Source: Vectrevirus NIC06P3
Length of the DNA: 45,947 nucleotides
Sequence record: OZ035778.1
Direction: 5' to 3' (one strand)
Both the position numbers and the translations under genes were made by a program. The first letter of the stretch is position 1, and each line of letters opens with the position of its first letter. Shown in pieces: positions 2,979 through 45,787 of this stretch. The notes under the pieces were generated by a model. The model made no database searches. It saw nothing but the letters and a program-made list of their open reading frames with translations, and had not been told where the DNA came from.

Positions 2979-3656
2979 GTGTTAGGTATTACAGGACAAC
3001 GAAGTGTAAGTCATCAAGCTAAGGTTGCCACGGAAGTGGCTCCTATCGTTGATATCTCAGATGTGTCTGACGTTAACTCTTATCTAAACCAAAAGTACCT
3101 ATCAGGTAAACAGGAAGGATATACTGTTCTGGCTAAGAAAGGTTCACGTTATTCATTGTATGCTGCAACAGGTTCTAAGCCAGAAGATAAGTGGTTGCCT
3201 TTAGAGCAAGCAACCTTACCTGATTCGAGTGCATTAGAGCTAATTGACACCATCGATGTTGAAGTTGCAAGTGCAAGCGACACAGTAGAGGTTAATGTAA
3301 CCAAAGAGAGGACTGTGTGCATCCAGACGCCTATGAAGGACTTAGCAGGTGATACAGTTTACCGGCAAGAATTGACTGCCAACATTAACCTTACCATTAA
3401 TGAAAACGGAAGCCCAAGCGATACGGTTAAATTAAACATATCAATTCCTAATTTGCCAGGAACATCTAGTGGGTCTTACTATACAGTTGACAATGTGCTG
3501 TGTACTTCTTTTGGAGACGACAGTCCTGTTATTGCCAATATAGATGTCGATAAGGCTACCACTAACTTGATTGCTGTTACACTTCGTAAAGAGACGGCAA
3601 CAGATATTAAGCTGTCTCTTGTAATTAGGTGGTCAATGCCAGTGGAGGTTGTATAA
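2979..3656 (+). CDS. hypothetical protein, paralog family member 3 with C-terminal extension
   Basis: Motif YLSGKQEGYTVL ... EDKWLP; start uncertain (GTG 2979 or TTG 2949); stop overlaps the endolysin ATG (TAATG). Confidence 0.45.
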   Translation: MLGITGQRSVSHQAKVATEVAPIVDISDVSDVNSYLNQKYLSGKQEGYTVLAKKGSRYSLYAATGSKPEDKWLPLEQATLPDSSALELIDTIDVEVASASDTVEVNVTKERTVCIQTPMKDLAGDTVYRQELTANINLTINENGSPSDTVKLNISIPNLPGTSSGSYYTVDNVLCTSFGDDSPVIANIDVDKATTNLIAVTLRKETATDIKLSLVIRWSMPVEVV

Positions 3657-4108: not shown

Positions 4109-4258
4109 ATGAAAAAGCTGTTCAAGTCTAAGAAGGTTGTAGGTGCACTAGTTGCATTGGCAATTGCTCTTGTTTCTGTAGGTCTTGGCGTAGACCTTGG
4201 CTCTGGCACGGAATCCTCTGTGACAGATGTGGTCTGCCAAGTGATCACCTGTGAATAA
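4109..4258 (+). CDS. small single-pass membrane protein (49 aa), possible holin-like lysis accessory
   Basis: MKKLFKSKKVVGALVALAIALVSVGLGV...; RBS GGGAGG; below the 60-aa ORF-track cutoff; position in lysis cassette. Confidence 0.4.
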   Translation: MKKLFKSKKVVGALVALAIALVSVGLGVDLGSGTESSVTDVVCQVITCE

Positions 4259-4472
4259 GTTTCTAGAAGTGCTGGCAGGTCTTATTGGCCTGCTTGTCTC
4301 TGCTAAGAAGAAACAAGAAGAGAAGGAGGCACAAAGTGAGGCGAATCGTGCTAGCGACAATCCTGCTGATTGGTTCGCTGATCATTTCCGGGTGTCAGAA
4401 GGCGTTACCAGAGAATCAAAAGGTGAAGCCACTGAGGCCGACGCTGACGGCAGTTTACGAAGTGGACGATAA
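4251..4472 (+). CDS. i-spanin (Rz-like), GTG start
   Basis: N-terminal TM helix LEVLAGLIGLLVSA followed by a charged periplasmic domain; sits after the endolysin and contains the o-spanin gene in another frame. Confidence 0.5.
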   Translation: MNKFLEVLAGLIGLLVSAKKKQEEKEAQSEANRASDNPADWFADHFRVSEGVTRESKGEATEADADGSLRSGR

Positions 4473-4545
4473 GGTATGCTTTAGTAAGCCGGATGCTACA
4501 CAACTTGGGTTGTACATTTTATCGCTAGAACGCGGTTACAAATAA
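4336..4545 (+). CDS. o-spanin (Rz1-like outer-membrane lipoprotein), GTG start
   Basis: Signal peptide plus lipobox LIISGC; RBS AGAAGGAGG at 4321-4329; overlaps Rz in the +1 frame as in classical Rz/Rz1 pairs. Confidence 0.5.
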   Translation: MRRIVLATILLIGSLIISGCQKALPENQKVKPLRPTLTAVYEVDDKVCFSKPDATQLGLYILSLERGYK

Positions 4546-4574
4546 TACATAGCTTTATGTATCAATCACCTATG

Positions 4575-4597
4575 ATTTAGGTGACACTATAGAAGAG
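4575..4597 (+). promoter_or_regulatory. SP6-type phage promoter (exact SP6 consensus)
   Basis: ATTTAGGTGACACTATAGAAGAG. Confidence 0.85.
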
Positions 4598-4669
4598 ATA
4601 GAGCGGCGATCGTTTGGTCGCCCTTTACTCAAGGTGCTCATGGTGGGCGCTTTAAGTAAAGGAGGAAAC

Positions 4670-5923
4670 ATGGCTCTAACGAGGCTTAGTTCTGATTTAG
4701 TCCGTGACGCAAAAGATGGTGGCACGTTGGGAGAGTGCCTACACGGATTTATGTCATTCTCTCAAGCAAAAGAAATAACAGGCTCTGATCAAGCTGCAAT
4801 GGAGTACCTCTTCTCTAACGCAAAAGTTATCTACATCAACGAGTCTTTGACACTAACAGAGAAGATAACCACAGACAGAAGTTCCGAGGTTACGGTACTT
4901 ACAAAGCCAGGTGTTGTAATAAATAACCTAGGATACATGCCAACAACAAGAACAAACCCCAATCACGTGGTTTCTGGTTTGTCTGTTAGAAACAAATTCA
5001 AACAAGATAATCAGTCTATTAATGGCAGGGTTTATAGTAAGCAAGCTGCATCATTTGAAGCAGCGGTTCATGATGCTGTTAGCAACGGTGGTACTTCTTC
5101 ATCTGAAAACTTTGTTGCACTTTATTCTGGGATAGAGTTCTTTAATTCCACGCTGCAAAGAGGTTGGGCCTTCAACTCTGTAACCAACTGCCATGGTATG
5201 AATACCGGAGATGAGATGTATGGTTATGAGTTGGACTTCAACGTAGATGGCAACCTAGATGGTGGCGGTCAAGCAGTTGGCTTGTACATTGCAGGTATTG
5301 GTGATTTGCGTCAGTGTGCAAACTCTGATGGCATTCGTGTACAACGGACACGTGACCTTGGTGGATTGTATAAGTGGAACCATGGTATTCGAGTTTTTGA
5401 CTCTATGACAGGCCTTGCCGTGATAGATTCAGCTACATATTCCATATTCGCACAAGGTTCTGCCCCTATAGTAAGGCGTAAGGCTGTGCAGGATGGAGGT
5501 TGGAGCTACATCCATAGTCTTAGCCCTACTAATATAACTTGGGGTGTTGATGATTATGGCTACACTTACTCGCCTCGTCTGTATCTTGGGTCTGGTTCTG
5601 GTAAGTCTAAGAACAGGGTTAATCTAGAAGGTGGTGTTTCATTTTACACCACTAACAAACCTGTTGGTTGGGGTGACATTGCTGCTGGGGCTTCTGTAAC
5701 TAAAAACTTCACAGAGTTGTTTGGTCTTGAAGAAGGCGACTACTCTAAGGCGGTGTTTACTGTAGGTGAGTTCCGTGTGGCTAACTCTTACGGAAGTTTG
5801 TTTGTCACTGTCTACACTAACTCAGCAAAAACTCAGGGGTATGTTAAGGTTACTAACCTAGGCTCAACTACTGTAACAGGCGTTGGGATAGGGATCAACC
5901 TGTCAATCCAAAAGGCGGGATAA
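4670..5923 (+). CDS. tailspike / receptor-binding protein 1
   Basis: 418-aa ORF with its own promoter, RBS AAAGGAGGAAAC, MALT N-terminus and leader shared with the next tailspike; Gly/Ser/Thr-rich beta-type composition. Specificity unknown. Confidence 0.55.
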   Translation: MALTRLSSDLVRDAKDGGTLGECLHGFMSFSQAKEITGSDQAAMEYLFSNAKVIYINESLTLTEKITTDRSSEVTVLTKPGVVINNLGYMPTTRTNPNHVVSGLSVRNKFKQDNQSINGRVYSKQAASFEAAVHDAVSNGGTSSSENFVALYSGIEFFNSTLQRGWAFNSVTNCHGMNTGDEMYGYELDFNVDGNLDGGGQAVGLYIAGIGDLRQCANSDGIRVQRTRDLGGLYKWNHGIRVFDSMTGLAVIDSATYSIFAQGSAPIVRRKAVQDGGWSYIHSLSPTNITWGVDDYGYTYSPRLYLGSGSGKSKNRVNLEGGVSFYTTNKPVGWGDIAAGASVTKNFTELFGLEEGDYSKAVFTVGEFRVANSYGSLFVTVYTNSAKTQGYVKVTNLGSTTVTGVGIGINLSIQKAG

Positions 5924-6011
5924 TAGGTATGTGCGGCGTAAGCCGCACTTTACGCGAACTTTCTTTCTTCATAGGCACTCATGGTGGGTGTCTATAAACA
6001 AAGGAGGTTAC

Positions 6012-8006
6012 ATGGCTTTAACCAAAGCTACAACAGTTAATGCATATCAGGGGCGTCCACCCGTTGTAATCACTGATAGCGTCGAAGATAAGTTAATGGA
6101 TGGACGTGCTGGTCTTCGTAAGCACTTTGGTGCTGTTGGGGACGGGCAACATGATGATACAGACGCCTTTGAAAAATGGATGGATTGCCTAACAGATGCA
6201 ACATATAAGCGTTTAGGGGCATTTTCGGACGAACACCCATATATGCTACAGAAAGGGCCACAGCTCATGTTAGAAGATGGGGCTTTCGTGTATGCTGGCA
6301 AAGGTTTGAACATCCCTACCCATCATGCCTTTGTTCTAAACATAATTGGACAAAGTTCCTTATCTACAAAAATTATCCTACCAGAAGATGTGTACTTCTT
6401 GGATTTAGATAACAACCCTGTGTTTTCTTATATGTCAGGTATTACGTTCCATGGTGGACTAGGTGCTGTACGCATGAAGTCTAAGTCATGCAATGCAACA
6501 AGTATGCACATATTTGAGCGTCTACGTATGTCTAGGTATAAGCAGTGTGCCTTTAGTAACAACTCAATAGATATGCCTTACGTTAAAATCAGAGACTCAG
6601 TGTTTATGGGAGATGTATCCAGAGAGACAATTGGACTGTGCTTATCTGGCCTGTCTGCTGGTAGTGATATCACAGGGAATCAGTTCACTGATAACAGGTA
6701 TAATCTCAAGTTAGCTGTTGCAGACAATGGTGTAGAACGTAATGGACCACCAACGCCTCTAAACATAGTAGGTAATGATTTCTATCGGACAGGACACCGC
6801 TCAGGTGCATCTTATGATATTTGGATTGAACCAGGTAAAACAGCTACAAACTCAGGACGGGGACTTGTTTTACAACGTAATAAGTTTGGGCAGGAGAACC
6901 TAAAGAGTCCAGATGCACACATTCTCATTGCAGATAGTGGGACAGGGCAAGGTGGTGATTTAAATGGGGACAGAATGCATGTAGAGACAAAATCTTCTGG
7001 ATTTGTGTCAGGCATTCTTTCAGAAGGCAACAATGTTAACTCTATCAATGGAAGTTACACTGCACCATACATCCGTAGCTTCACACCTAACTTTGGTAAC
7101 AATAAGATCCATGATATTTATGACAATGGAATGCCGTCTCGTATAGTAGAGTTCGCAGGTGGTATTACGCAAAGTGAAGTGGTTAATATATCTCGCACTA
7201 ATATGCTTGAGATTGATCAGTCTCTTGCCCTCCAGAAAGGGGATGTACCTAATTTATTGTCTAACCTAGATGGTGTGTTTCGTGTAAGGGATGATTTGGG
7301 TCTGTTGGCAGGACACCCTCAAGTGCACGACACACCAACCGGTTCTCAGATGTCAGATTTTCTGCATGTATATAAAGGACCAACATCTAGTCTTGCTGTT
7401 GCAGAAGCAACGCGCTTGGCTATTGATAACTCCTATGGAGGTAAAAATGAGGCAGCAGAGTTCACTATGACAACGGAAGATGGACGTGCAGTTGCAACGG
7501 TGACAGGGCTTGTTGCTGGTGATACTTTCTGGTTAGATTTTGAGGTAAAGAGATCTGCTGACAATGCGGCCCCTCGTGTGCTCTTCGAGGTACTAGATTC
7601 AAGTGCGAGTACCTTACTTCTTCGAAGGACTATACTGTTAGATGCGAAGCAGAGATGGCAGAAAGTTGTGCTACCTTTTGTGCCAAACAGTTCTGGTAGT
7701 ATCTTTGTTCGCTTTAAGGCGAAAGGTTGGACACCTTCTAATAAGAAGTTTCAAGTAGGAAACCTTAATGTATACCGCAACCATACACCAGTTAACACTG
7801 GACATAATGGAGGTTTATCTTCCTCTTGGAGTTCACAGCACATCCTTATTGGGTCTTACCACTTATGGGTAGATGCAACTGGCGCATTGCGTATCAAAGA
7901 TGGCGCACCTACGTCTGTTAACGATGGTGTCATCGTTGGCAGTCAGTCAGAAAGTGTTAGCCAACAAGTATCGGGTGATGGTATACAAACCATTGATAGT
8001 GTCTAA
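6012..8006 (+). CDS. tailspike 2, pectate-lyase-like beta-helix (probable polysaccharide depolymerase)
   Basis: HFGAVGDGQHDDTDAFEKW motif typical of right-handed beta-helix tailspikes; RBS AAAGGAGG; MALT N-terminus. Confidence 0.65.
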   Translation: MALTKATTVNAYQGRPPVVITDSVEDKLMDGRAGLRKHFGAVGDGQHDDTDAFEKWMDCLTDATYKRLGAFSDEHPYMLQKGPQLMLEDGAFVYAGKGLNIPTHHAFVLNIIGQSSLSTKIILPEDVYFLDLDNNPVFSYMSGITFHGGLGAVRMKSKSCNATSMHIFERLRMSRYKQCAFSNNSIDMPYVKIRDSVFMGDVSRETIGLCLSGLSAGSDITGNQFTDNRYNLKLAVADNGVERNGPPTPLNIVGNDFYRTGHRSGASYDIWIEPGKTATNSGRGLVLQRNKFGQENLKSPDAHILIADSGTGQGGDLNGDRMHVETKSSGFVSGILSEGNNVNSINGSYTAPYIRSFTPNFGNNKIHDIYDNGMPSRIVEFAGGITQSEVVNISRTNMLEIDQSLALQKGDVPNLLSNLDGVFRVRDDLGLLAGHPQVHDTPTGSQMSDFLHVYKGPTSSLAVAEATRLAIDNSYGGKNEAAEFTMTTEDGRAVATVTGLVAGDTFWLDFEVKRSADNAAPRVLFEVLDSSASTLLLRRTILLDAKQRWQKVVLPFVPNSSGSIFVRFKAKGWTPSNKKFQVGNLNVYRNHTPVNTGHNGGLSSSWSSQHILIGSYHLWVDATGALRIKDGAPTSVNDGVIVGSQSESVSQQVSGDGIQTIDSV

Positions 8007-8356
8007 AAGTAGATAGGCTGTACGGCAGAATACGCAGGAACTTATTGCTTCATATCGTAACGTGAAGAAATAATTTTGCATCGTCTGCGTAGCAGTTAGT
8101 ATCTTAGTGTAACAAAGGGCTGACCTAGGTTGGCTCTTCATGAAGGAGGCAACATGATTTGGATTCACACGTATGGTGTAGGGCCGTTCAAGAAGAAGGT
8201 ACTCAGGAAGATTCATGAGTCCGAGGAATCAGCCTTAGCCAGCCAGAAGGTACTTGGTGGTACTGTCCAGTGCTACATGAAGAAGCCACAAGGCTTTAGC
8301 TTAGTATAATACAATAGTTAATATGAAAGGTTAGGTGTATGTTGTAGGGAGGTTTA

Positions 8357-8620
8357 ATGGTCATTGTCTCTAGTAAGAAGAAGAAGCAGAGTGAAATGGA
8401 TAAGATAGTGCAGACAGGTCTTGCTGCTAAGTCTGGTCAGCCACTCAATACTGGCACTAGTTCAATGGACAAGATCGTTGAAACAGGGAAACAGGCAATG
8501 TCTGGTGGGTTGGACAAGGGTGCACGGAAGCAGGCTGAGTTCAATAAGATTATTGATTTCGGTAAGGAAGCTAAGAGGGAATTCTTAAGACCATCTGCGG
8601 TAGAACCAGTAAGACACTAG
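8357..8620 (+). CDS. hypothetical protein with internal repeat MDKIV(Q/E)TG
   Basis: 87-aa ORF, Lys-rich; location in the genome right-end region; coding status uncertain. Confidence 0.3.
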   Translation: MVIVSSKKKKQSEMDKIVQTGLAAKSGQPLNTGTSSMDKIVETGKQAMSGGLDKGARKQAEFNKIIDFGKEAKREFLRPSAVEPVRH

Positions 8621-15350: not shown

Positions 15351-15373
15351 TATTTACCGGACACTATAGGATA
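15351..15373 (+). promoter_or_regulatory. phage promoter
   Basis: TATTTACCGGACACTATAGGATA. Confidence 0.7.
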
Positions 15374-15517
15374 AACCATCGGAGATGGGAAAGAGAAGGG
15401 AAGATAAAGGATATAAAGGAAGTAATAGGTATTAAAGGTTATATAGGTTTACCTAGGAATACCTATTACCTTCTTCCTTCCTCCTCTTACTACTTAGAGG
15501 AAGGGCAGACCTATGTT

Positions 15518-15937: not shown

Positions 15938-17916
15938 TGGCTATTATTAATAACATCCCGTGCCCTGCCTGCCAGAAGAATGGACACGATAAATCCGGCA
16001 ATCATCTTATGATATTTGATGATGGTGCTGGCTATTGTAACCGTGGTCACTTCCACGATAATGGCAGACCTTACTACCATAAGCCTGAAGGCGGCATCGA
16101 GATAACCGAGTTGCCTATCACAGGTAACATCAAATACACCCCTTCCCAATTCAAAGAGATGGAGAAGGAAGGGAAGATTAGCGACCCTAAACTACGCGCC
16201 ATCGCACTTGGTGGTATGCGTATGAAAGACCGTTGGGAGGTCATGAATGAGCAAGAAAGGGCAGACCAAGAAGCAGAGTGGAAACTTGATGTTGAATGGT
16301 TCCTCACGCTTAAGCGTAAGAACCTTGTTTCCCGACACATTCGCGGCGACATTTGCGCATTGTATGATGTACGTGTCGGACACGATGAAGAAGGTAGAGT
16401 CTCGCGGCATTATTATCCACGCTTCGAAAAAGGTGAGTTAGTAGGCGCTAAGTGTCGCACATTACCTAAAGACTTTAAGTTTGGTCACTTAGGCAAGCTC
16501 TTTGGTATGCAAGACCTTTTCGGGATGAACACTTTGTCTCACGTGTTAGACAAGGGAAGACGAAAGGATTGCTTACTTATTGTAGGCGGTGAACTTGATG
16601 CACTAGCAGCGCAGCAGATGCTTCTTGATTCTGCCAAAGGCACTAAGTGGGAAGGCCAACCCTACCATGTATGGTCTGTCAACAAGGGGGAGTCTTGCCT
16701 TGAAGAGATAGTGCAAAACCGTGAGCACATCGCCCAATTCAAGAAGATTATTTGGGGCTTTGATGGAGATGAGGTAGGGCAGAAGCAGAACCAGCAAGCG
16801 GCTCGCCTGTTTCCCGGCAAATCCTATATCCTTGAGTACCCTTCTGGTTGCAAAGATGCTAACAAGGCATTGATGGCTGGCAAGTCTAAAGAGTTTGTGG
16901 ATGCATGGTTTAATGCCAAGTCCTCTGATGAAGTCTTTGGTAGCCAGATTAAATCTATCGCATCTCAAAGGGACAAGCTCAAAGCTGCACGCCCAGAGCA
17001 AGGGTTGTCATGGCCTTGGCCTAAGCTGAACAAGGTAACGCTAGGTATTCGTAAGAATCAGCTTATCATTGTAGGTGCAGGCTCTGGTGTGGGTAAGACT
17101 GAGTTCCTTCGTGAAGTAGTTAAGCATCTCATTGAAGAGCATGGAGAATCTGTAGGCATCATTTCTACAGAAGACCCGATGGTCAAGGTATCCCGTGCCT
17201 TTATCGGTAAGTGGATTGATAAGCGTATTGAACTACCGCCAACCAACGATCCGAAAGAGGATGGATACCGTGAGGTGTTCGACTACACAGAGGAAGAAGC
17301 TAATGCTGCCATTGATTATGTAGCTGACACAGGGAAGCTATTTGTGGCTGACCTAGAAGGTGACTATTCAATGGAGAAGGTGGAGCAAACTTGCCTTGAG
17401 TTTGAGGCTATGGGTATTTCTAATATCATCATTGATAACTTAACGGGGATTAAATTAGATGAGCGTGCTTTTGGTGGGAAGGTTGGTGCACTTGATGAAT
17501 GCGTCAAGCGGATTGGTACTATCAAAGACCGACACCCAGTTACTATATTCCTTGTATCACACCTTACACGCCCTGCGGGAAATAGAGTCCAGCACGAAGA
17601 AGGTGGCGAGGTTATCCTTTCTGACTTCCGAGGCTCAGGCGCTATCGGATTCTGGGCATCTTACGCCTTGGGGATTGAGCGTAATACAAGAGCTGAAACG
17701 CTTGATGAAAGGACTACCACGTACATCTCATGTGTCAAAGACCGTGACCAAGGTGTGTGGACTGGCACTAAAGTGAAACTTAAAGGTGATATGACCACAG
17801 GGAGGTTGTTGGAATGGGAAGATCGTGTTTCTAGATTTGACACAGGTATCCCTAAGGAGCAAAGTGTACCTGATGAAAACACAGGAGAGTTGAATGAAGA
17901 AACTTCAGAGTTTTGA
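15937..17916 (+). CDS. DNA primase/helicase (T7 gp4-like)
   Basis: N-terminal zinc ribbon CPACQ ... CNRGH; Walker A GAGSGVGKT; 659 aa. Confidence 0.93.
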   Translation: MAIINNIPCPACQKNGHDKSGNHLMIFDDGAGYCNRGHFHDNGRPYYHKPEGGIEITELPITGNIKYTPSQFKEMEKEGKISDPKLRAIALGGMRMKDRWEVMNEQERADQEAEWKLDVEWFLTLKRKNLVSRHIRGDICALYDVRVGHDEEGRVSRHYYPRFEKGELVGAKCRTLPKDFKFGHLGKLFGMQDLFGMNTLSHVLDKGRRKDCLLIVGGELDALAAQQMLLDSAKGTKWEGQPYHVWSVNKGESCLEEIVQNREHIAQFKKIIWGFDGDEVGQKQNQQAARLFPGKSYILEYPSGCKDANKALMAGKSKEFVDAWFNAKSSDEVFGSQIKSIASQRDKLKAARPEQGLSWPWPKLNKVTLGIRKNQLIIVGAGSGVGKTEFLREVVKHLIEEHGESVGIISTEDPMVKVSRAFIGKWIDKRIELPPTNDPKEDGYREVFDYTEEEANAAIDYVADTGKLFVADLEGDYSMEKVEQTCLEFEAMGISNIIIDNLTGIKLDERAFGGKVGALDECVKRIGTIKDRHPVTIFLVSHLTRPAGNRVQHEEGGEVILSDFRGSGAIGFWASYALGIERNTRAETLDERTTTYISCVKDRDQGVWTGTKVKLKGDMTTGRLLEWEDRVSRFDTGIPKEQSVPDENTGELNEETSEF

Positions 17917-18385
17917 GGAAGCAGGATATGTCGTCAAGGAAGACGGCACGATCTTAAACCCAAAAGGTTTGGTCAGAAAACCATCCTTCGCAGGTAGGAA
18001 TGTTAAATACTATGTAGTATCTTGGAGGGATAAACACTCTAAGAAAACAATCATAGATTTAGTTCACAGATTGGTTGCTAAGAAGTACATACCTAACCCA
18101 TATGGTTTACCAGAAGTTCATCATAAAGACTTTAATCCTCTTAATTGTCATAAAGACAATCTTGAATGGACAGATGGTAAGTCTAACTGTGAGTACAGTT
18201 ATGCAAGGGTAAAGGCTTCACTTGCACGTCGTGCTACTTTGTTGTCACCTGATGGCACTAAGTACGACATATTTAATGTTCGTAAATTCTGCCGTGAGCA
18301 TAACCTCAATCCACCCAGCATATTTGAAGTGCTTAGTGGTAAGCGTAAATCTCACAAAGGGTGGACTATTTACCGGACACTATAG
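17894..18385 (+). CDS. HNH homing endonuclease
   Basis: VHHKDFNPLNCHKDNLEW HNH motif; overlaps the primase/helicase 3' end and runs into the downstream promoter. Confidence 0.75.
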   Translation: MKKLQSFEEAGYVVKEDGTILNPKGLVRKPSFAGRNVKYYVVSWRDKHSKKTIIDLVHRLVAKKYIPNPYGLPEVHHKDFNPLNCHKDNLEWTDGKSNCEYSYARVKASLARRATLLSPDGTKYDIFNVRKFCREHNLNPPSIFEVLSGKRKSHKGWTIYRTL

Positions 18386-44500: not shown

Positions 44501-44813
44501 AATGGGCATGATGAGTACAACTGCTGTATTTAGCCTAGGTGGAGATTTCTTAGGGGGCTTAGGTGTTTTACCTTCCGAACTCATTCAATCACGTTATGAA
44601 GCGGGTTTCCAAAGCAAAGGACTGATTGACCAGATACCGCTAGTTGGCGTTGGTGCAGATGCAGTTAATCTGGCTAACTCAATTAAGAAGTATGCAGAAG
44701 GTGACACAGAAGGCGTAGATATTGCTAGGCGAGCACTACGTCTTGTGCCACTTACCAATGTAATAGGTGTCCAGAACGCATTGCGTTATGGCTTAGATGA
44801 ACTGGAGGACTGA
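41505..44813 (+). CDS. large internal virion/core protein (T7 gp16-like)
   Basis: 1102 aa; last of three consecutive internal-protein genes before the tail-fibre adaptor. Confidence 0.7.
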   Translation: MEQDIKTNWAGYVQSTPEPFSIEAAPVSAPTIRQRNELQEQVLEAKADADILGAVGAAFQNEWLAFGGKRWYDRATADFPPQPDFEIQPDRREALRFKYGTDMMQKITEGVRSEDELNFRIQNADDDLERNKRIAQAGWVGSVATIGAAVLDPVGWVASIPTGGAAKVGLVGRAVRGAVAAGVSNAAIESVLVQGDMTRDLDDIMVALGSGMAMGGVIGAVARGRATKLSEQGDDRAASVVRSADAGDRYVRAVADDSIGAMRVKGAEVLTEGAFDISSKGEDLLKTLQREGNAIDMTPRRWAGTMSALGTVVHSSQDASVRGLGARLFESPQGLGMQKASASLMQNTNLNRLKSADMNRFNDGFDLWLKENNINPVAGHTNSHYVQQYNEKVWEAVRIGMDESTPKSIRMAAEGQQAMYREALALRQRSGEAGFEKVKADDKYMPDIFDSMKARRQFGMHDKEDIIELFSRAYQNGSRKVPKEVADEIARAQVNRVVDATLTGRMSFEKAMSGQTKAEYEAIMRKAGFSDEEIEKMVEALDNKETRDNISNRAKMSLGLDVTQEYKGIRMRDFMNTNVEELTDNYMKEAAGGAALARQGFSTYQAALNAIDLVERNARNAAKDTKAHAQFEAESAKIRQSEPDYKKAQEQIEELKKRLKLKEKDEAAGLAIDEEIRQMREGLRLIMGKSIDADPQALSTKMLRRGRDITGVLRLGQMGFAQLGELANFMGEFGIAATTIALGKQFRFTSKALRNGDGFFRDKNLAEVERMVGYIGEDNWLTTKGARPDEFGDVTTVRGMMAHFDQSMNSIRRAQTNLSLFRMAQGSLERMTNRQIALSFIDHLEGKKVIPQKKLEELGLTQEFMSSLQKHYDANSKGSGLLGFDTMPYAMGETLANAIRRKSGLIIQRNFIGDEGIWMNKALGKTFAQLKSFSLVSGEKQFGRGIRHDKIGLAKKTAFGFALGSMVYAAKAYVNSIGREDQDEYLEEKLSPKGLAFGAMGMMSTTAVFSLGGDFLGGLGVLPSELIQSRYEAGFQSKGLIDQIPLVGVGADAVNLANSIKKYAEGDTEGVDIARRALRLVPLTNVIGVQNALRYGLDELED

Positions 44814-45787
44814 TGGGTTATACTTTCACAGAACACACAGCCAACGGTACGCAAGTGACTTATCCTTTTAGGTTTGCTGGTAGGGATAAGGGTTATCTTC
44901 GTGCCTCAGATGTAAGAGTGGATACTCTTCAAGGGGAGACTTGGACCAAGGTCACATCTGGCTGGCAATTAACTGGTACAAACCAGATTACTTTTGATGT
45001 AGCACCAGCAGCAGGTTTGAGGATCCGTATTCGAAGGGAAGTGCCAAAAGAAAACCCATATGCAGAGTTTGACCGTGGTGTCACCCTTGATATGAAATCT
45101 TTGAATGGTTCCTTTATTCACAACCTAGAGGCAACCCAAGAGCTTCTAGATGGGTTTTACCCTGAAGGTTATTATATCAAGCAAAATGTATCATGGGGTG
45201 GTAATAAGATCACTGACCTTGCAGATGGCACAGCACCGAATGATGCAGTGAATAAAGGACAGATGGACGCCCTTGATAAGAAACACACAGACTGGAATAA
45301 GACGCAAGATGAGCAGATTGATGGTATCATTCGTAGCTTCGTCAGTAACATATCTCACCGTTCTGCACCTTGGACTTATTTAGCTGTGGGTGGTGAAGAT
45401 AAGGTAAAACCTCCTTTCGTCTTCCGAGCAGCACTAGTGTGGCGCGATGGTGTATATCAGGATGAGCAAGCTGGTGCTTTTGAAATTAGAGATAATACTA
45501 TATTTCTAGCTAAGCCTTTGCTTAGAAAAGGCGAGCGCGTGTCTGTTCTCCTTGGTTCTCGTGTAGCAGTACCAGACAAAGGTGAGGTTCTCCAGCTTGA
45601 GTTCAACACAGTGGCAGGCTATACGGAGATAAATCTAGGTATGCGTGTATCAGAGGTGTCTGTCTTTCTTGATGGGCTTCTCCAATCTCTAGGCTCTTAC
45701 GAACTTATAGATGACAATAAGTTGGTATTTAGTGAGCCACTACCAGATTGCACCGTGCTGGTTCAAGTTAAATCTGATACAAAGTAG
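44813..45787 (+). CDS. tail-fibre-like adaptor protein (homolog of the T7 gp17 N-terminal domain)
   Basis: TYPFRFAGRDKGYLRASDV and GNKITDLADGTAPNDAVNKGQMDAL parallel the T7 gp17 N-terminal segments; 324 aa with no long fibre shaft. Confidence 0.7.
   Translation: MGYTFTEHTANGTQVTYPFRFAGRDKGYLRASDVRVDTLQGETWTKVTSGWQLTGTNQITFDVAPAAGLRIRIRREVPKENPYAEFDRGVTLDMKSLNGSFIHNLEATQELLDGFYPEGYYIKQNVSWGGNKITDLADGTAPNDAVNKGQMDALDKKHTDWNKTQDEQIDGIIRSFVSNISHRSAPWTYLAVGGEDKVKPPFVFRAALVWRDGVYQDEQAGAFEIRDNTIFLAKPLLRKGERVSVLLGSRVAVPDKGEVLQLEFNTVAGYTEINLGMRVSEVSVFLDGLLQSLGSYELIDDNKLVFSEPLPDCTVLVQVKSDTK

Follow-up and report, generated by a model that had tools for sequence, protein, structure and literature searches.

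Our results indicate that the best explanation of positions 4575-8006 is a host-range module belonging to a Klebsiella podophage that is SP6-like (Molineuxvirinae, Ulipvirus-like), a reading to which we assign a probability of about 0.85. A module with two tailspikes is of an ordinary, already known kind for such a phage, and the region leaves the general picture of SP6-like phages unchanged. What is new lies in the details, namely that the first tailspike is short and of a rare kind and that a conserved RNA hairpin lies over the ribosome-binding site of each tailspike gene. The window, by which we mean the whole 45,947-nucleotide stretch that was analyzed, represents the genome of this phage in circularly permuted form, and its closest record is vB_Kpn_004_Koku (Ulipvirus). 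The module sets which Klebsiella surface glycans are open to attack, which makes it the region of choice for typing or engineering in phage therapy. It comprises the following features, together with an adaptor gene located elsewhere in the genome.

4575..4597, plus strand: SP6-type phage RNA polymerase promoter, identical to ATTTAGGTGACACTATAGAAG and a perfect consensus
4605..4622, plus strand: GC-rich 5' hairpin of leader 1 (GGCGAUC-GUUU-GGUCGCC), from the minimum-free-energy fold
4622..4662, plus strand: long imperfect hairpin of leader 1 (fold dG -37.8 kcal/mol, z -4.3; covariance-model match 4610-4672)
4658..4665, plus strand: Shine-Dalgarno AAAGGAGG of receptor-binding protein (RBP) gene 1
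4670..5923, plus strand: RBP gene 1, 417 aa, ATG at 4670, MALTRLSS..., with a docking N-terminus of the undecapeptide type (MALTRLSSDLVR)
5931..5948, plus strand: GC-rich hairpin with a GUAA tetraloop after gene 1 (fold; terminator-like scan match 5936-5955)
5957..6009, plus strand: long imperfect hairpin of leader 2 (fold dG -40.6 kcal/mol, z -5.6; covariation; covariance-model match 5946-6014)
6000..6007, plus strand: Shine-Dalgarno AAAGGAGG of RBP gene 2
6012..8006, plus strand: RBP gene 2, 664 aa, ATG at 6012, MALTKATT..., with a docking N-terminus of the heptapeptide type (MALTKAT)
44813..45787, plus strand: adaptor protein (gp37-like, 324 aa; PHROG 2710, E 3e-120; PDB 7y22 "tail adaptor protein," E 1e-97, residues 1-319)

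The two RBP genes stand in tandem downstream of the lysis genes and behind a phage-polymerase promoter, and the order holin/spanin, RBP1, RBP2 is common to the window and its nearest relatives, the Klebsiella SP6-like phages. The original prediction of tandem receptor-binding genes from an SP6-group phage is upheld by the SP6-type promoter, the adaptor gene, and synteny with K1-5, SP6, and Ulipvirus, which all agree. The adaptor is a separate, short protein with homology to the N terminus of T7-like tail fibers and without a receptor-binding domain. Neither RBP has an anchor of the T7 gp17 type; both begin instead with short docking peptides. When N termini from the two slots were compared across about 25 phages, slot 1 was of the undecapeptide type (MALTRLSSDLVR; compare MIQRLGSSLVK in K1-5 gp47) and slot 2 was of the heptapeptide type (MALTKAT; compare MAKLTKP in K1-5 gp46 and MALTKAN in PM85), a typing based on short-peptide similarity only. 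The roles given to the two peptides follow Leiman 2007, to the extent that it is summarized in PMC6872550. Each RBP, as a trimer, would be expected to sit on one of two adaptor sites, yielding a virion with two different spikes; which peptide goes to which site is likewise an expectation resting on the similarity of peptides of 7 to 12 residues. In K1-5, the undecapeptide has been proposed to occupy the C-terminal site and the heptapeptide the middle one.

Both genes are likely to be transcribed in tandem from a single strong phage-polymerase promoter, that at 4575, with a putative transcription start at the G at 4592. Eight promoter-like sites were found in the window; the one at 4575 is the only perfect copy, the other seven having two to three mismatches, and a scan of the window placed none between the two RBP genes.

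Of the two spikes, the second is the more readily characterized. The motif HFGAVGDGQHDDTDAFEKW, which had pointed to a pectate-lyase-like tailspike, is present at residues ~38-56 of protein 2, and structure prediction supports that assignment with a parallel beta-helix fold. Its layout consists of a right-handed beta-helix (~85-430), a beta-sandwich resembling a carbohydrate-binding module (CBM) (~450-590), and a small C-terminal domain. The structural neighbors are mixed (GH87, GH28, PL6, K5 lyase, K1 lyase, and the K2 depolymerases 7vz3 and 8iqe) and include hydrolases as well as lyases, so that on the predicted structure "pectate-lyase-like" describes a fold, not a chemistry. At 9-18% identity to these neighbors, no catalytic residue is transferable. 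Protein 2 is best regarded as a beta-helix tailspike that is predicted to degrade glycans and has a domain resembling a CBM.

Protein 1 would be a short, divergent beta-helix spike from a rare family. Its putative layout is a docking N terminus, then a short divergent beta-helix body, then a C-terminal beta-sandwich. Sequence and profile searches with it gave no direct match in Pfam, PHROG, or PDB. The AF2 model, built from a 43-sequence alignment, reached a pLDDT of 55.9, with residues 93-321 below 50, and was too poor for a fold search. Support for a beta-helix comes through a remote family member, P0140, which scores 35.1 bits against PF12708 (Pfam; cut-off 27) and which hhalign aligns with the protein 1 family at 98.9% probability over 339 columns. 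When the protein 1 profile was broadened, its sole match was to the N-cap motif found in beta-helix enzymes, a match contributed by distant members; the cap motif of the relatives, GAKGDGxTDDT, aligns with a degenerate AKEITGSDQ in the window protein. Protein 1 may therefore also be a beta-helix protein, by remote (transitive) homology only. The original prediction that one of the two proteins has this fold holds for protein 2 and would now read "both," with protein 1 tentatively included via the remote link through P0140 and PF12708. The two proteins are not paralogs, as an hhalign comparison of their families gave a probability of 0.1%. The family of the first spike is small and rare, has no solved structure, and counts only 20 cluster representatives among 1.84 billion proteins, and no GenBank phage record exceeds 59% protein identity to the gene 1 body. 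A closer relative, P0002, is 83% identical to RBP1 and starts MSIQKLSSDLVR.

Each of the two genes is preceded by a leader, and the leaders are a real repeat. GCGGCG occurs at 4603-4608 and 5933-5938, overlapping the GC hairpins at 4605-4622 and 5931-5948; CTTTAC at 4623-4628 and 5948-5953; CTCATGGTGGG at 4637-4647 in leader 1 and 5978-5988 in leader 2; and ACATGGCT at 4668-4675 and 6010-6017, respectively. All of the motifs originally listed as shared were present, with the correction that GCTCATGGTGGG is exact in leader 1 only and reads ACTCATGGTGGG in leader 2. Both proteins start with MALT because the repeat extends into the first four codons (ATGGCTYTAAC). A Smith-Waterman alignment of leader 1 with leader 2 (4596-4685 versus 5924-6027) scored 51, compared with a mean of 14.2, a standard deviation of 2.3, and a maximum of 26 in 2000 dinucleotide shuffles, which places the similarity beyond chance. 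Only one other place in the genome, leader 1, resembles the core of leader 2. A covariance model built from the second-slot leaders of 20 phages only, and run over the whole window with filters off, returned two significant plus-strand matches in 45.9 kb, at 5946-6014 (72.8 bits) and at 4610-4672 (51.9 bits, E 5e-11). A candidate third copy, ahead of the small open reading frame at 8154, was discarded, with a score of 12 bits (E 0.72) and a fold z of -0.6.

The leaders are more than a shared string, which both confirms and refines what had been proposed for them: an RNA hairpin is conserved in them and extends over the ribosome-binding site. Each leader is predicted to have two parts, a short GC hairpin and then a hairpin of ~20 bp whose 3' arm contains part of the Shine-Dalgarno sequence in slot 1 and all of it in slot 2. 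In leader 1, the lower stem of the long hairpin (CUUUACU/AGUAAAG) extends into the Shine-Dalgarno sequence, below a 10-bp upper stem and a UGG triloop. In leader 2, an 11-bp upper stem and a 1x1 internal loop are joined to a lower stem made of a pyrimidine tract and the entire AAAGGAGG. The mean unpaired probability of the gene 2 Shine-Dalgarno sequence, 0.14, is the lowest among genes with a recognizable one; for the gene 1 region it is 0.33, ninth lowest of 34, or only moderate occlusion. Fold z-scores ranged from -4.3 to -6.0 across the leaders of the window, K1-5, and SP6, and RNAalifold independently recovered the same hairpin, which occurs in lineages of Escherichia, Salmonella, Klebsiella, Citrobacter, and Proteus phages. 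Rfam 15 gave no match in the whole window at the gathering score, nor in 4400-8400 at E up to 1. The literature that we searched gave no description of a leader hairpin or of RNase III sites in SP6-group phages, which is not proof of absence. Scanning viral contigs for the pattern TCATGGTGGN{12,15}AGGAGG lacked specificity, in that only 4 of the 120 loci returned (three contigs) passed the stem filter.

Comparison with relatives places the leaders at the edges of exchanged DNA. Against Koku, homology is confined to 4220-4696 (86%) and 5928-8309 (97%), and the two gene 1 bodies show no relationship. In three other Ulipvirus-like genomes, conservation is limited to the leaders (~4545-4680 and 5933-6033) and the block downstream. 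In a sister contig, the same RBP1 (94% identity) is paired with a different RBP2, of 582 aa. Homology thus ends at ~4680-4696, picks up at 5928-6033, and does so again after ~8013, as would be anticipated for the swap-in junctions that the leaders were proposed to be. Conserved linkers flank exchangeable bodies, with breakpoints at the leader edges, and RBP1 and RBP2 reassort independently. These alignments establish the leaders as conserved junctions between which gene bodies are swapped independently among related phages, and the leader sequences may double as homology arms for cassette exchange.

Given this pattern, an argument can be made that the leaders are kept as DNA only, serving as homology arms along with an ordinary promoter, terminator, and ribosome-binding site, and that the long hairpin has no function of its own. 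Homology breaks exactly at the leader edges while RBP1 and RBP2 reassort independently, and conservation through recombination alone could keep a hairpin without a regulatory role. In addition, two of five covariation measures ("pairs with a change on both sides" and "further pair types") were not above shuffles, and the covariation is drawn from ~3-4 lineages, so that independent events are fewer than cell counts suggest. Against this, compensatory changes maintain the pairing. In 20 distinct second-slot leaders, 93.8% of cells were paired, falling to at most 57% when the partner was slid, and six pairs changed on both sides; when first-slot copies were added, an 18-bp helix was 95.5% paired with six covarying pairs. 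The changes include A-U/U-A at three pairs of the upper stem and C-G/U-A and U-A/C-G in the lower stem, and the triloop varies (UGG, CGG, UAG, UGU, UAU, CAU) while the stem is kept and the closing pairs are invariant. The first-slot leaders of K1-5, SP6, and PM85 have another sequence, the same architecture, and compensatory pairs of their own, although MAFFT found no in-register alignment between the K1-5 and Ulipvirus types and first-slot covariation was read by inspection. Finally, most phage promoters in the window have a comparable 5' hairpin downstream, but the second hairpin is missing from the other promoter-proximal leaders of the same genome. Taken together, these comparisons establish that the long hairpin is kept with compensatory changes, and we hold a DNA-only role to be somewhat unlikely.

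Two further alternatives concern the genes themselves. The hairpin at 5931-5948, which lies 8 nt past the gene 1 stop codon and is kept in all second-slot leaders, could be a terminator, leaving gene 2 dependent on read-through and far more weakly expressed, or gene 1 as the sole effective spike gene. It is GC-rich and stable, UUUAC follows it, it coincides with a terminator-like scan match, and no promoter separates the two genes; moreover, a TransTerm terminator has been reported after the tailspike gene of an SP6-like Salmonella phage (PMC4837284). We regard this outcome as improbable, given that the U tract consists of only three U's, that the gene 2 frame is uninterrupted, shares 97.8% identity with its counterpart in a cultured phage, and has its own strong Shine-Dalgarno sequence, and that for K1-5, SP6, and Kp7 both tandem products have been reported to be part of the virion or enzymatically active (PMC6872550; bioRxiv 10.1101/2024.05.19.594906). 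The element has the look of a terminator that is weak, or of a stabilizer of the 3' end. It is also quite unlikely that gene 1 encodes a binding-only or decaying spike in place of an enzyme. Such a product would recall the short first-slot remnants of related phages (the stubs in K1-ULIP33, PmP19, and S16a), and it would fit a protein of only 417 aa with a degenerate cap motif, no database match, and a poor model. Yet homologs at 45-57% identity span ~90% of protein 1 and occur fused to a wide variety of anchor domains in phages and prophages of Klebsiella, Raoultella, and E. coli, as is usual for a functional specificity module. The family has many invariant charged residues, E187 and D189 being unchanged even in distant relatives, and near-identical, full-length copies are carried by two other phage contigs.

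Returning to the reading of the region as a two-spike host-range module with structured leaders, we consider it reasonably likely that the hairpin limits or times spike translation. Melting or RNase III-type cleavage of the helix, which spans about two turns, could expose the ribosome-binding site, though the involvement of RNase III specifically is doubtful. Only tentatively do we propose a candidate new cis-regulatory RNA before Molineuxvirinae tailspike genes that would set spike amount or timing (e.g., by RNase III freeing the Shine-Dalgarno sequence) and also serve as a recombination linker between cassettes. If this is true, host-range genes would be portable along with their own expression control, with a hairpin flanking every cassette. 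A hairpin that occludes the ribosome-binding site is also a cheap, testable candidate for balancing two spikes from one transcript. The junctions at ~4680-4696, 5928-6033, and after ~8013 are sites of natural exchange and the right places for engineered swaps, which should leave both the leader hairpins and the initial codons in place.

The mRNAs of T7-group phages carry RNase III processing hairpins and 5' stabilizing hairpins. Like these, the leader elements are intergenic, with a helix of ~19-25 bp spanning about two helical turns, a small internal loop, and a variable loop sequence, as judged from folds and conserved pairing. By analogy, the ribosome-binding site in the 3' arm would be exposed by cleavage or melting. 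The beta-helix capsule depolymerases (Depo32 7vz3, K2-2 TSP 8iqe, CBA120 TSP2/TSP4, and K5 lyase 2x3h) differ in that identity to them is only 9-12%.

Among phages of the same group, the window shares its backbone with Ulipvirus (K1-ULIP33, vB_Kpn_004_Koku, and K44PH129C1) and Kp7, with 86-97% nucleotide identity to Koku in the flanks and gene 2, and it has the same slot order, the undecapeptide type first and MALTKAT second. Parts of Kp7 have been solved (adaptor 7y22, gp51 7y5s, and gp52 7xyc), and the window adaptor matches 7y22 at E 1e-97. Unlike the window, Kp7 has a different promoter type and a slot 1 leader without the UCAYGGUGG stem-loop, as judged from the unfolded sequence.

The cassette of coliphage K1-5 carries dual tailspikes, the K5 lyase gp46 and the endosialidase gp47, on the adaptor gp37, and the same system occurs in K1E and in the Salmonella phage SP6. 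As the original prediction of a swap-in architecture implied, the window has this same cassette architecture: a right-end genome position after the lysis genes, an SP6-type promoter before the first gene, two tandem RBP genes with a conserved intergenic leader of ~85 nt between them, a separate adaptor, and short N-terminal docking peptides in place of a fused anchor. The host genus is different, however, both enzymatic bodies are unrelated in sequence, and the gene order of the docking-peptide types is the reverse of that in K1-5. The second-slot leader of K1-5 is recognizably the same element (87 bits with the covariance model). The first-slot leaders of K1-5 and SP6 have the same architecture, yet they gave no match to the model at E up to 1; in the window lineage, by contrast, the first-slot leader has a stem-loop of the second-slot type (UCAUGGUGG) and the same first four codons.

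The window is a circularly permuted, SP6-like podophage genome of 45.9 kb. The best megablast match of the region is vB_Kpn_004_Koku (genus Ulipvirus, Molineuxvirinae), among the Klebsiella SP6-like phages, followed by K44PH129C1, K1-ULIP33, and then the Vectrevirus group that includes K1-5. The region starts with an exact SP6 promoter (ATTTAGGTGACACTATAGAAG at 4575), and this one promoter precedes two co-oriented receptor-binding protein (RBP) genes:

4575-4595, spike-cassette promoter
4610-4672, plus strand, covariance-model match in leader 1, before RBP1 (51.9 bits, E 5e-11)
4670-5923, RBP1, 417 aa (slot 1)
5946-6014, plus strand, covariance-model match in leader 2, between the genes (72.8 bits)
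6012-8006, RBP2, 664 aa (slot 2)
8016-8097, downstream of RBP2, long stem-loop (dG -27 kcal/mol, z -2.8)
8154-8309, 51-aa open reading frame (ORF)
44813-45787, adaptor gene

This promoter is the genome's only perfect match to the SP6 consensus 21-mer. A scan of the window returned eight sites in total, none of them between RBP1 and RBP2; the other seven (11593, 18368, 19215, 22779, 24823, 27961, and 33292) have two or three mismatches each, with three at the capsid-gene promoter (33292). Elsewhere, a 163-aa ORF at 17894-18385 has a subthreshold match to HNH_3 endonucleases (22.2 bits, cutoff 24.8) and, judged from this similarity, may be a homing endonuclease inserted beside the primase/helicase region. 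The RBP genes begin at ATG codons (4670 and 6012), each 4 nt past AAAGGAGG; the automatic ORF list starts both farther upstream, at GTG codons. A further ATG in leader 1 (4640-4642), in the apical portion of its hairpin, is in frame with RBP1 (MVGALSKGGNMALT...), and in the K44PH129C1 record (locus L002, 1596) the first spike is annotated from this leader-hairpin codon, 30 nt too early.

The original prediction held that the two genes share a duplicated leader, and our alignments bear this out. The local alignment score was 51, compared with 14.2±2.3 (maximum, 26) for 2,000 dinucleotide shuffles. All of the strings listed as shared recur in both leaders at equivalent positions, but GCTCATGGTGGG is exact in leader 1 only, with leader 2 reading ACTCATGGTGGG. 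Elsewhere in the genome, nothing but leader 1 resembles the leader-2 core. Furthermore, when the whole window was searched, with filters off, using a covariance model trained exclusively on second-slot leaders from 20 phages, the two leaders were the significant plus-strand matches. Both proteins begin with MALT because the repeat runs on through ATGGCTYTAAC.

Comparison with relatives reveals where the cassette is cut. Koku is homologous at 4220-4696 (86%) and 5928-8309 (97%), while the RBP1 body in between is unrelated. With K44PH129C1 and with two relatives from metagenomes, conservation is confined to the leaders (~4545-4680 and 5933-6033) and to the block downstream, which begins at ~8013. 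Finally, a sister contig from a near-identical phage (Logan contig DRR251959_6462; locus L147, 5347-7095) carries RBP1 at 94% identity beside a different, 582-aa RBP2 starting MALTQATKPL, a natural single-slot swap that is a useful comparison for host-range work. Thus, the leaders with the first codons are fixed junctions between which gene bodies are replaced individually, as expected of the swap-in module that had been proposed. The leaders would double as homology arms. The right-hand junction is marked by the 51-aa ORF, which has no family match and shows 74-97% nucleotide identity in the compared Ulipvirus relatives. In several relatives, slot 1 is only a stub: a 113-aa ORF annotated as pectate lyase in K1-ULIP33 (L138, 3152-3490), and a short ORF beginning VLTKLTSALVRQ in PmP19 (L139, ~3330-3500) and S16a (L142). 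These look like emptied cassette slots, because each keeps its docking peptide and, downstream, the second-slot leader.

The junctions also carry a conserved hairpin that overlaps the ribosome-binding site. In both leaders, the fold comprises a short GC hairpin and then a long imperfect one (leader 1, dG -37.8 kcal/mol, z -4.3; leader 2, dG -40.6 kcal/mol, z -5.6), and the K1-5 and SP6 leaders fold likewise (z -4.3 to -6.0). In slot 2, the whole of AAAGGAGG lies in the 3' arm of this long hairpin; in slot 1, the arm takes in just its first bases. Across 20 distinct second-slot leaders, 93.8% of cells were paired in the named structure versus 39-57% with the partner slid, both partners had changed in six pairs, and the covariation score was 0.264 versus ≤0.077, in a sample of few lineages in which two of five measures do not exceed shuffles. 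RNAalifold, unprompted, returned the same long hairpin. With Ulipvirus first-slot copies added, in an alignment fitted to the model, the 18-bp helix was 95.5% paired with six covarying pairs. The apparently conserved UCAYGGUGG resolves into three closing pairs (U-G, C-G, and A-U) around a variable triloop. In K1-5, SP6, PM85, and F4M1D, the first-slot leaders differ in sequence but have the same nested architecture, and inspection revealed compensatory pairs among them (CCTATTACT/AGTAATAGG versus CCTATTATT/AATAATAGG; CCAATC/GGTTGG versus CCAGTC/GGCTGG).

Among all genes with a real Shine-Dalgarno sequence, accessibility of this site is lowest in slot 2 (0.14); the slot-1 value is intermediate (0.33). 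The long hairpin would hold back translation until it is melted or cut. With its two helical turns, small internal loop, and apical loop that varies, it would be a fitting substrate for RNase III. Just 3' of RBP1, the GC hairpin would act as a weak terminator or 3' stabilizer. Elsewhere in the window, promoter-proximal leaders have the 5' hairpin only. Two promoter-proximal transcripts (2243-2350 and 15369-15480) open with a long run rich in purines, after which comes a very stable hairpin (GGGUGUACUCCUGUACACCC and GUAAUAGGUAU...AUACCUAUUAC). The leader hairpin matched no Rfam family, and we found no description of it in the literature searched.

One spike had been predicted to be pectate-lyase-like, and protein 2 indeed has a beta-helix fold. 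Protein 1 had no sequence match in Pfam, PHROG, or PDB, and its AF2 model was poor. Its family is small (20 representatives at E <1e-3 among 1.84 billion cluster representatives). Homologues (45-57% identity over ~90% of the length) occur in phages and prophages of Klebsiella, Raoultella, and E. coli, joined to T7-tail, P22 head-binding, or TSP1/gp66 N-terminal domains, and such varied anchors are the usual signature of what would be a portable specificity module. Distant relatives carry pectate-lyase-like PF12708 (35.1 bits in the relative P0140, cutoff 27), hhalign matches the family to P0140 (98.9% probability, 339 columns), and the degenerate AKEITGSDQ of protein 1 aligns with their canonical GAKGDGxTDDT cap. 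Based on this indirect evidence, protein 1 is probably a short, divergent beta-helix spike. All family members keep E187 and D189 unchanged. Kinship between the two spikes was rejected. Both would degrade surface glycans.

The 44813-45787 product is homologous to a solved tail adaptor protein (7y22, E 1e-97) and matches PHROG 2710. According to the summary in PMC6872550 of Leiman et al. (2007), K1-5 gp46 docks via the heptapeptide MAKLTKP and gp47 via the undecapeptide MIQRLGSSLVK. In SP6, the same undecapeptide is encoded from locus position 5748 (L141) but is lost from RefSeq gp50, which is annotated from an internal GTG (5775). Among ~25 phages whose spike N-termini we compared, slot 1 holds the heptapeptide type (MAKLTKP, MSLTKP, or MALTKAN) and slot 2 the undecapeptide type in E. 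coli, Salmonella, and Proteus PM85-type phages, whereas the Klebsiella lineages, including this phage, have the opposite order (slot 1, MALT[RK]L[SN]xxLV; slot 2, MALT[KRE]AT). In slot 1, Kp7 gp51 begins SVTRLTSSLVRWKSK, and a protein 83% identical to RBP1 on a Kp7-like contig begins MSIQKLSSDLVR; the latter confirms, by similarity of short peptides, that the MALTR start in the window is a variant of the undecapeptide class. Both spikes would dock on the adaptor by these peptides, with each peptide's site a presumptive assignment.

Taken together, the original prediction is correct and is accounted for by a well-known system. The added value is modest: a rare first spike, a docking-peptide order reversed in Klebsiella lineages, and a conserved leader hairpin. 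K1-5 and SP6 have the same gene order as the window (holin/spanin, RBP1, RBP2, small ORFs, genome end), and the cassette matches the modular arrangement reportedly described for K1-5, K1E, and SP6 by Scholl et al. in 2001 and 2002.
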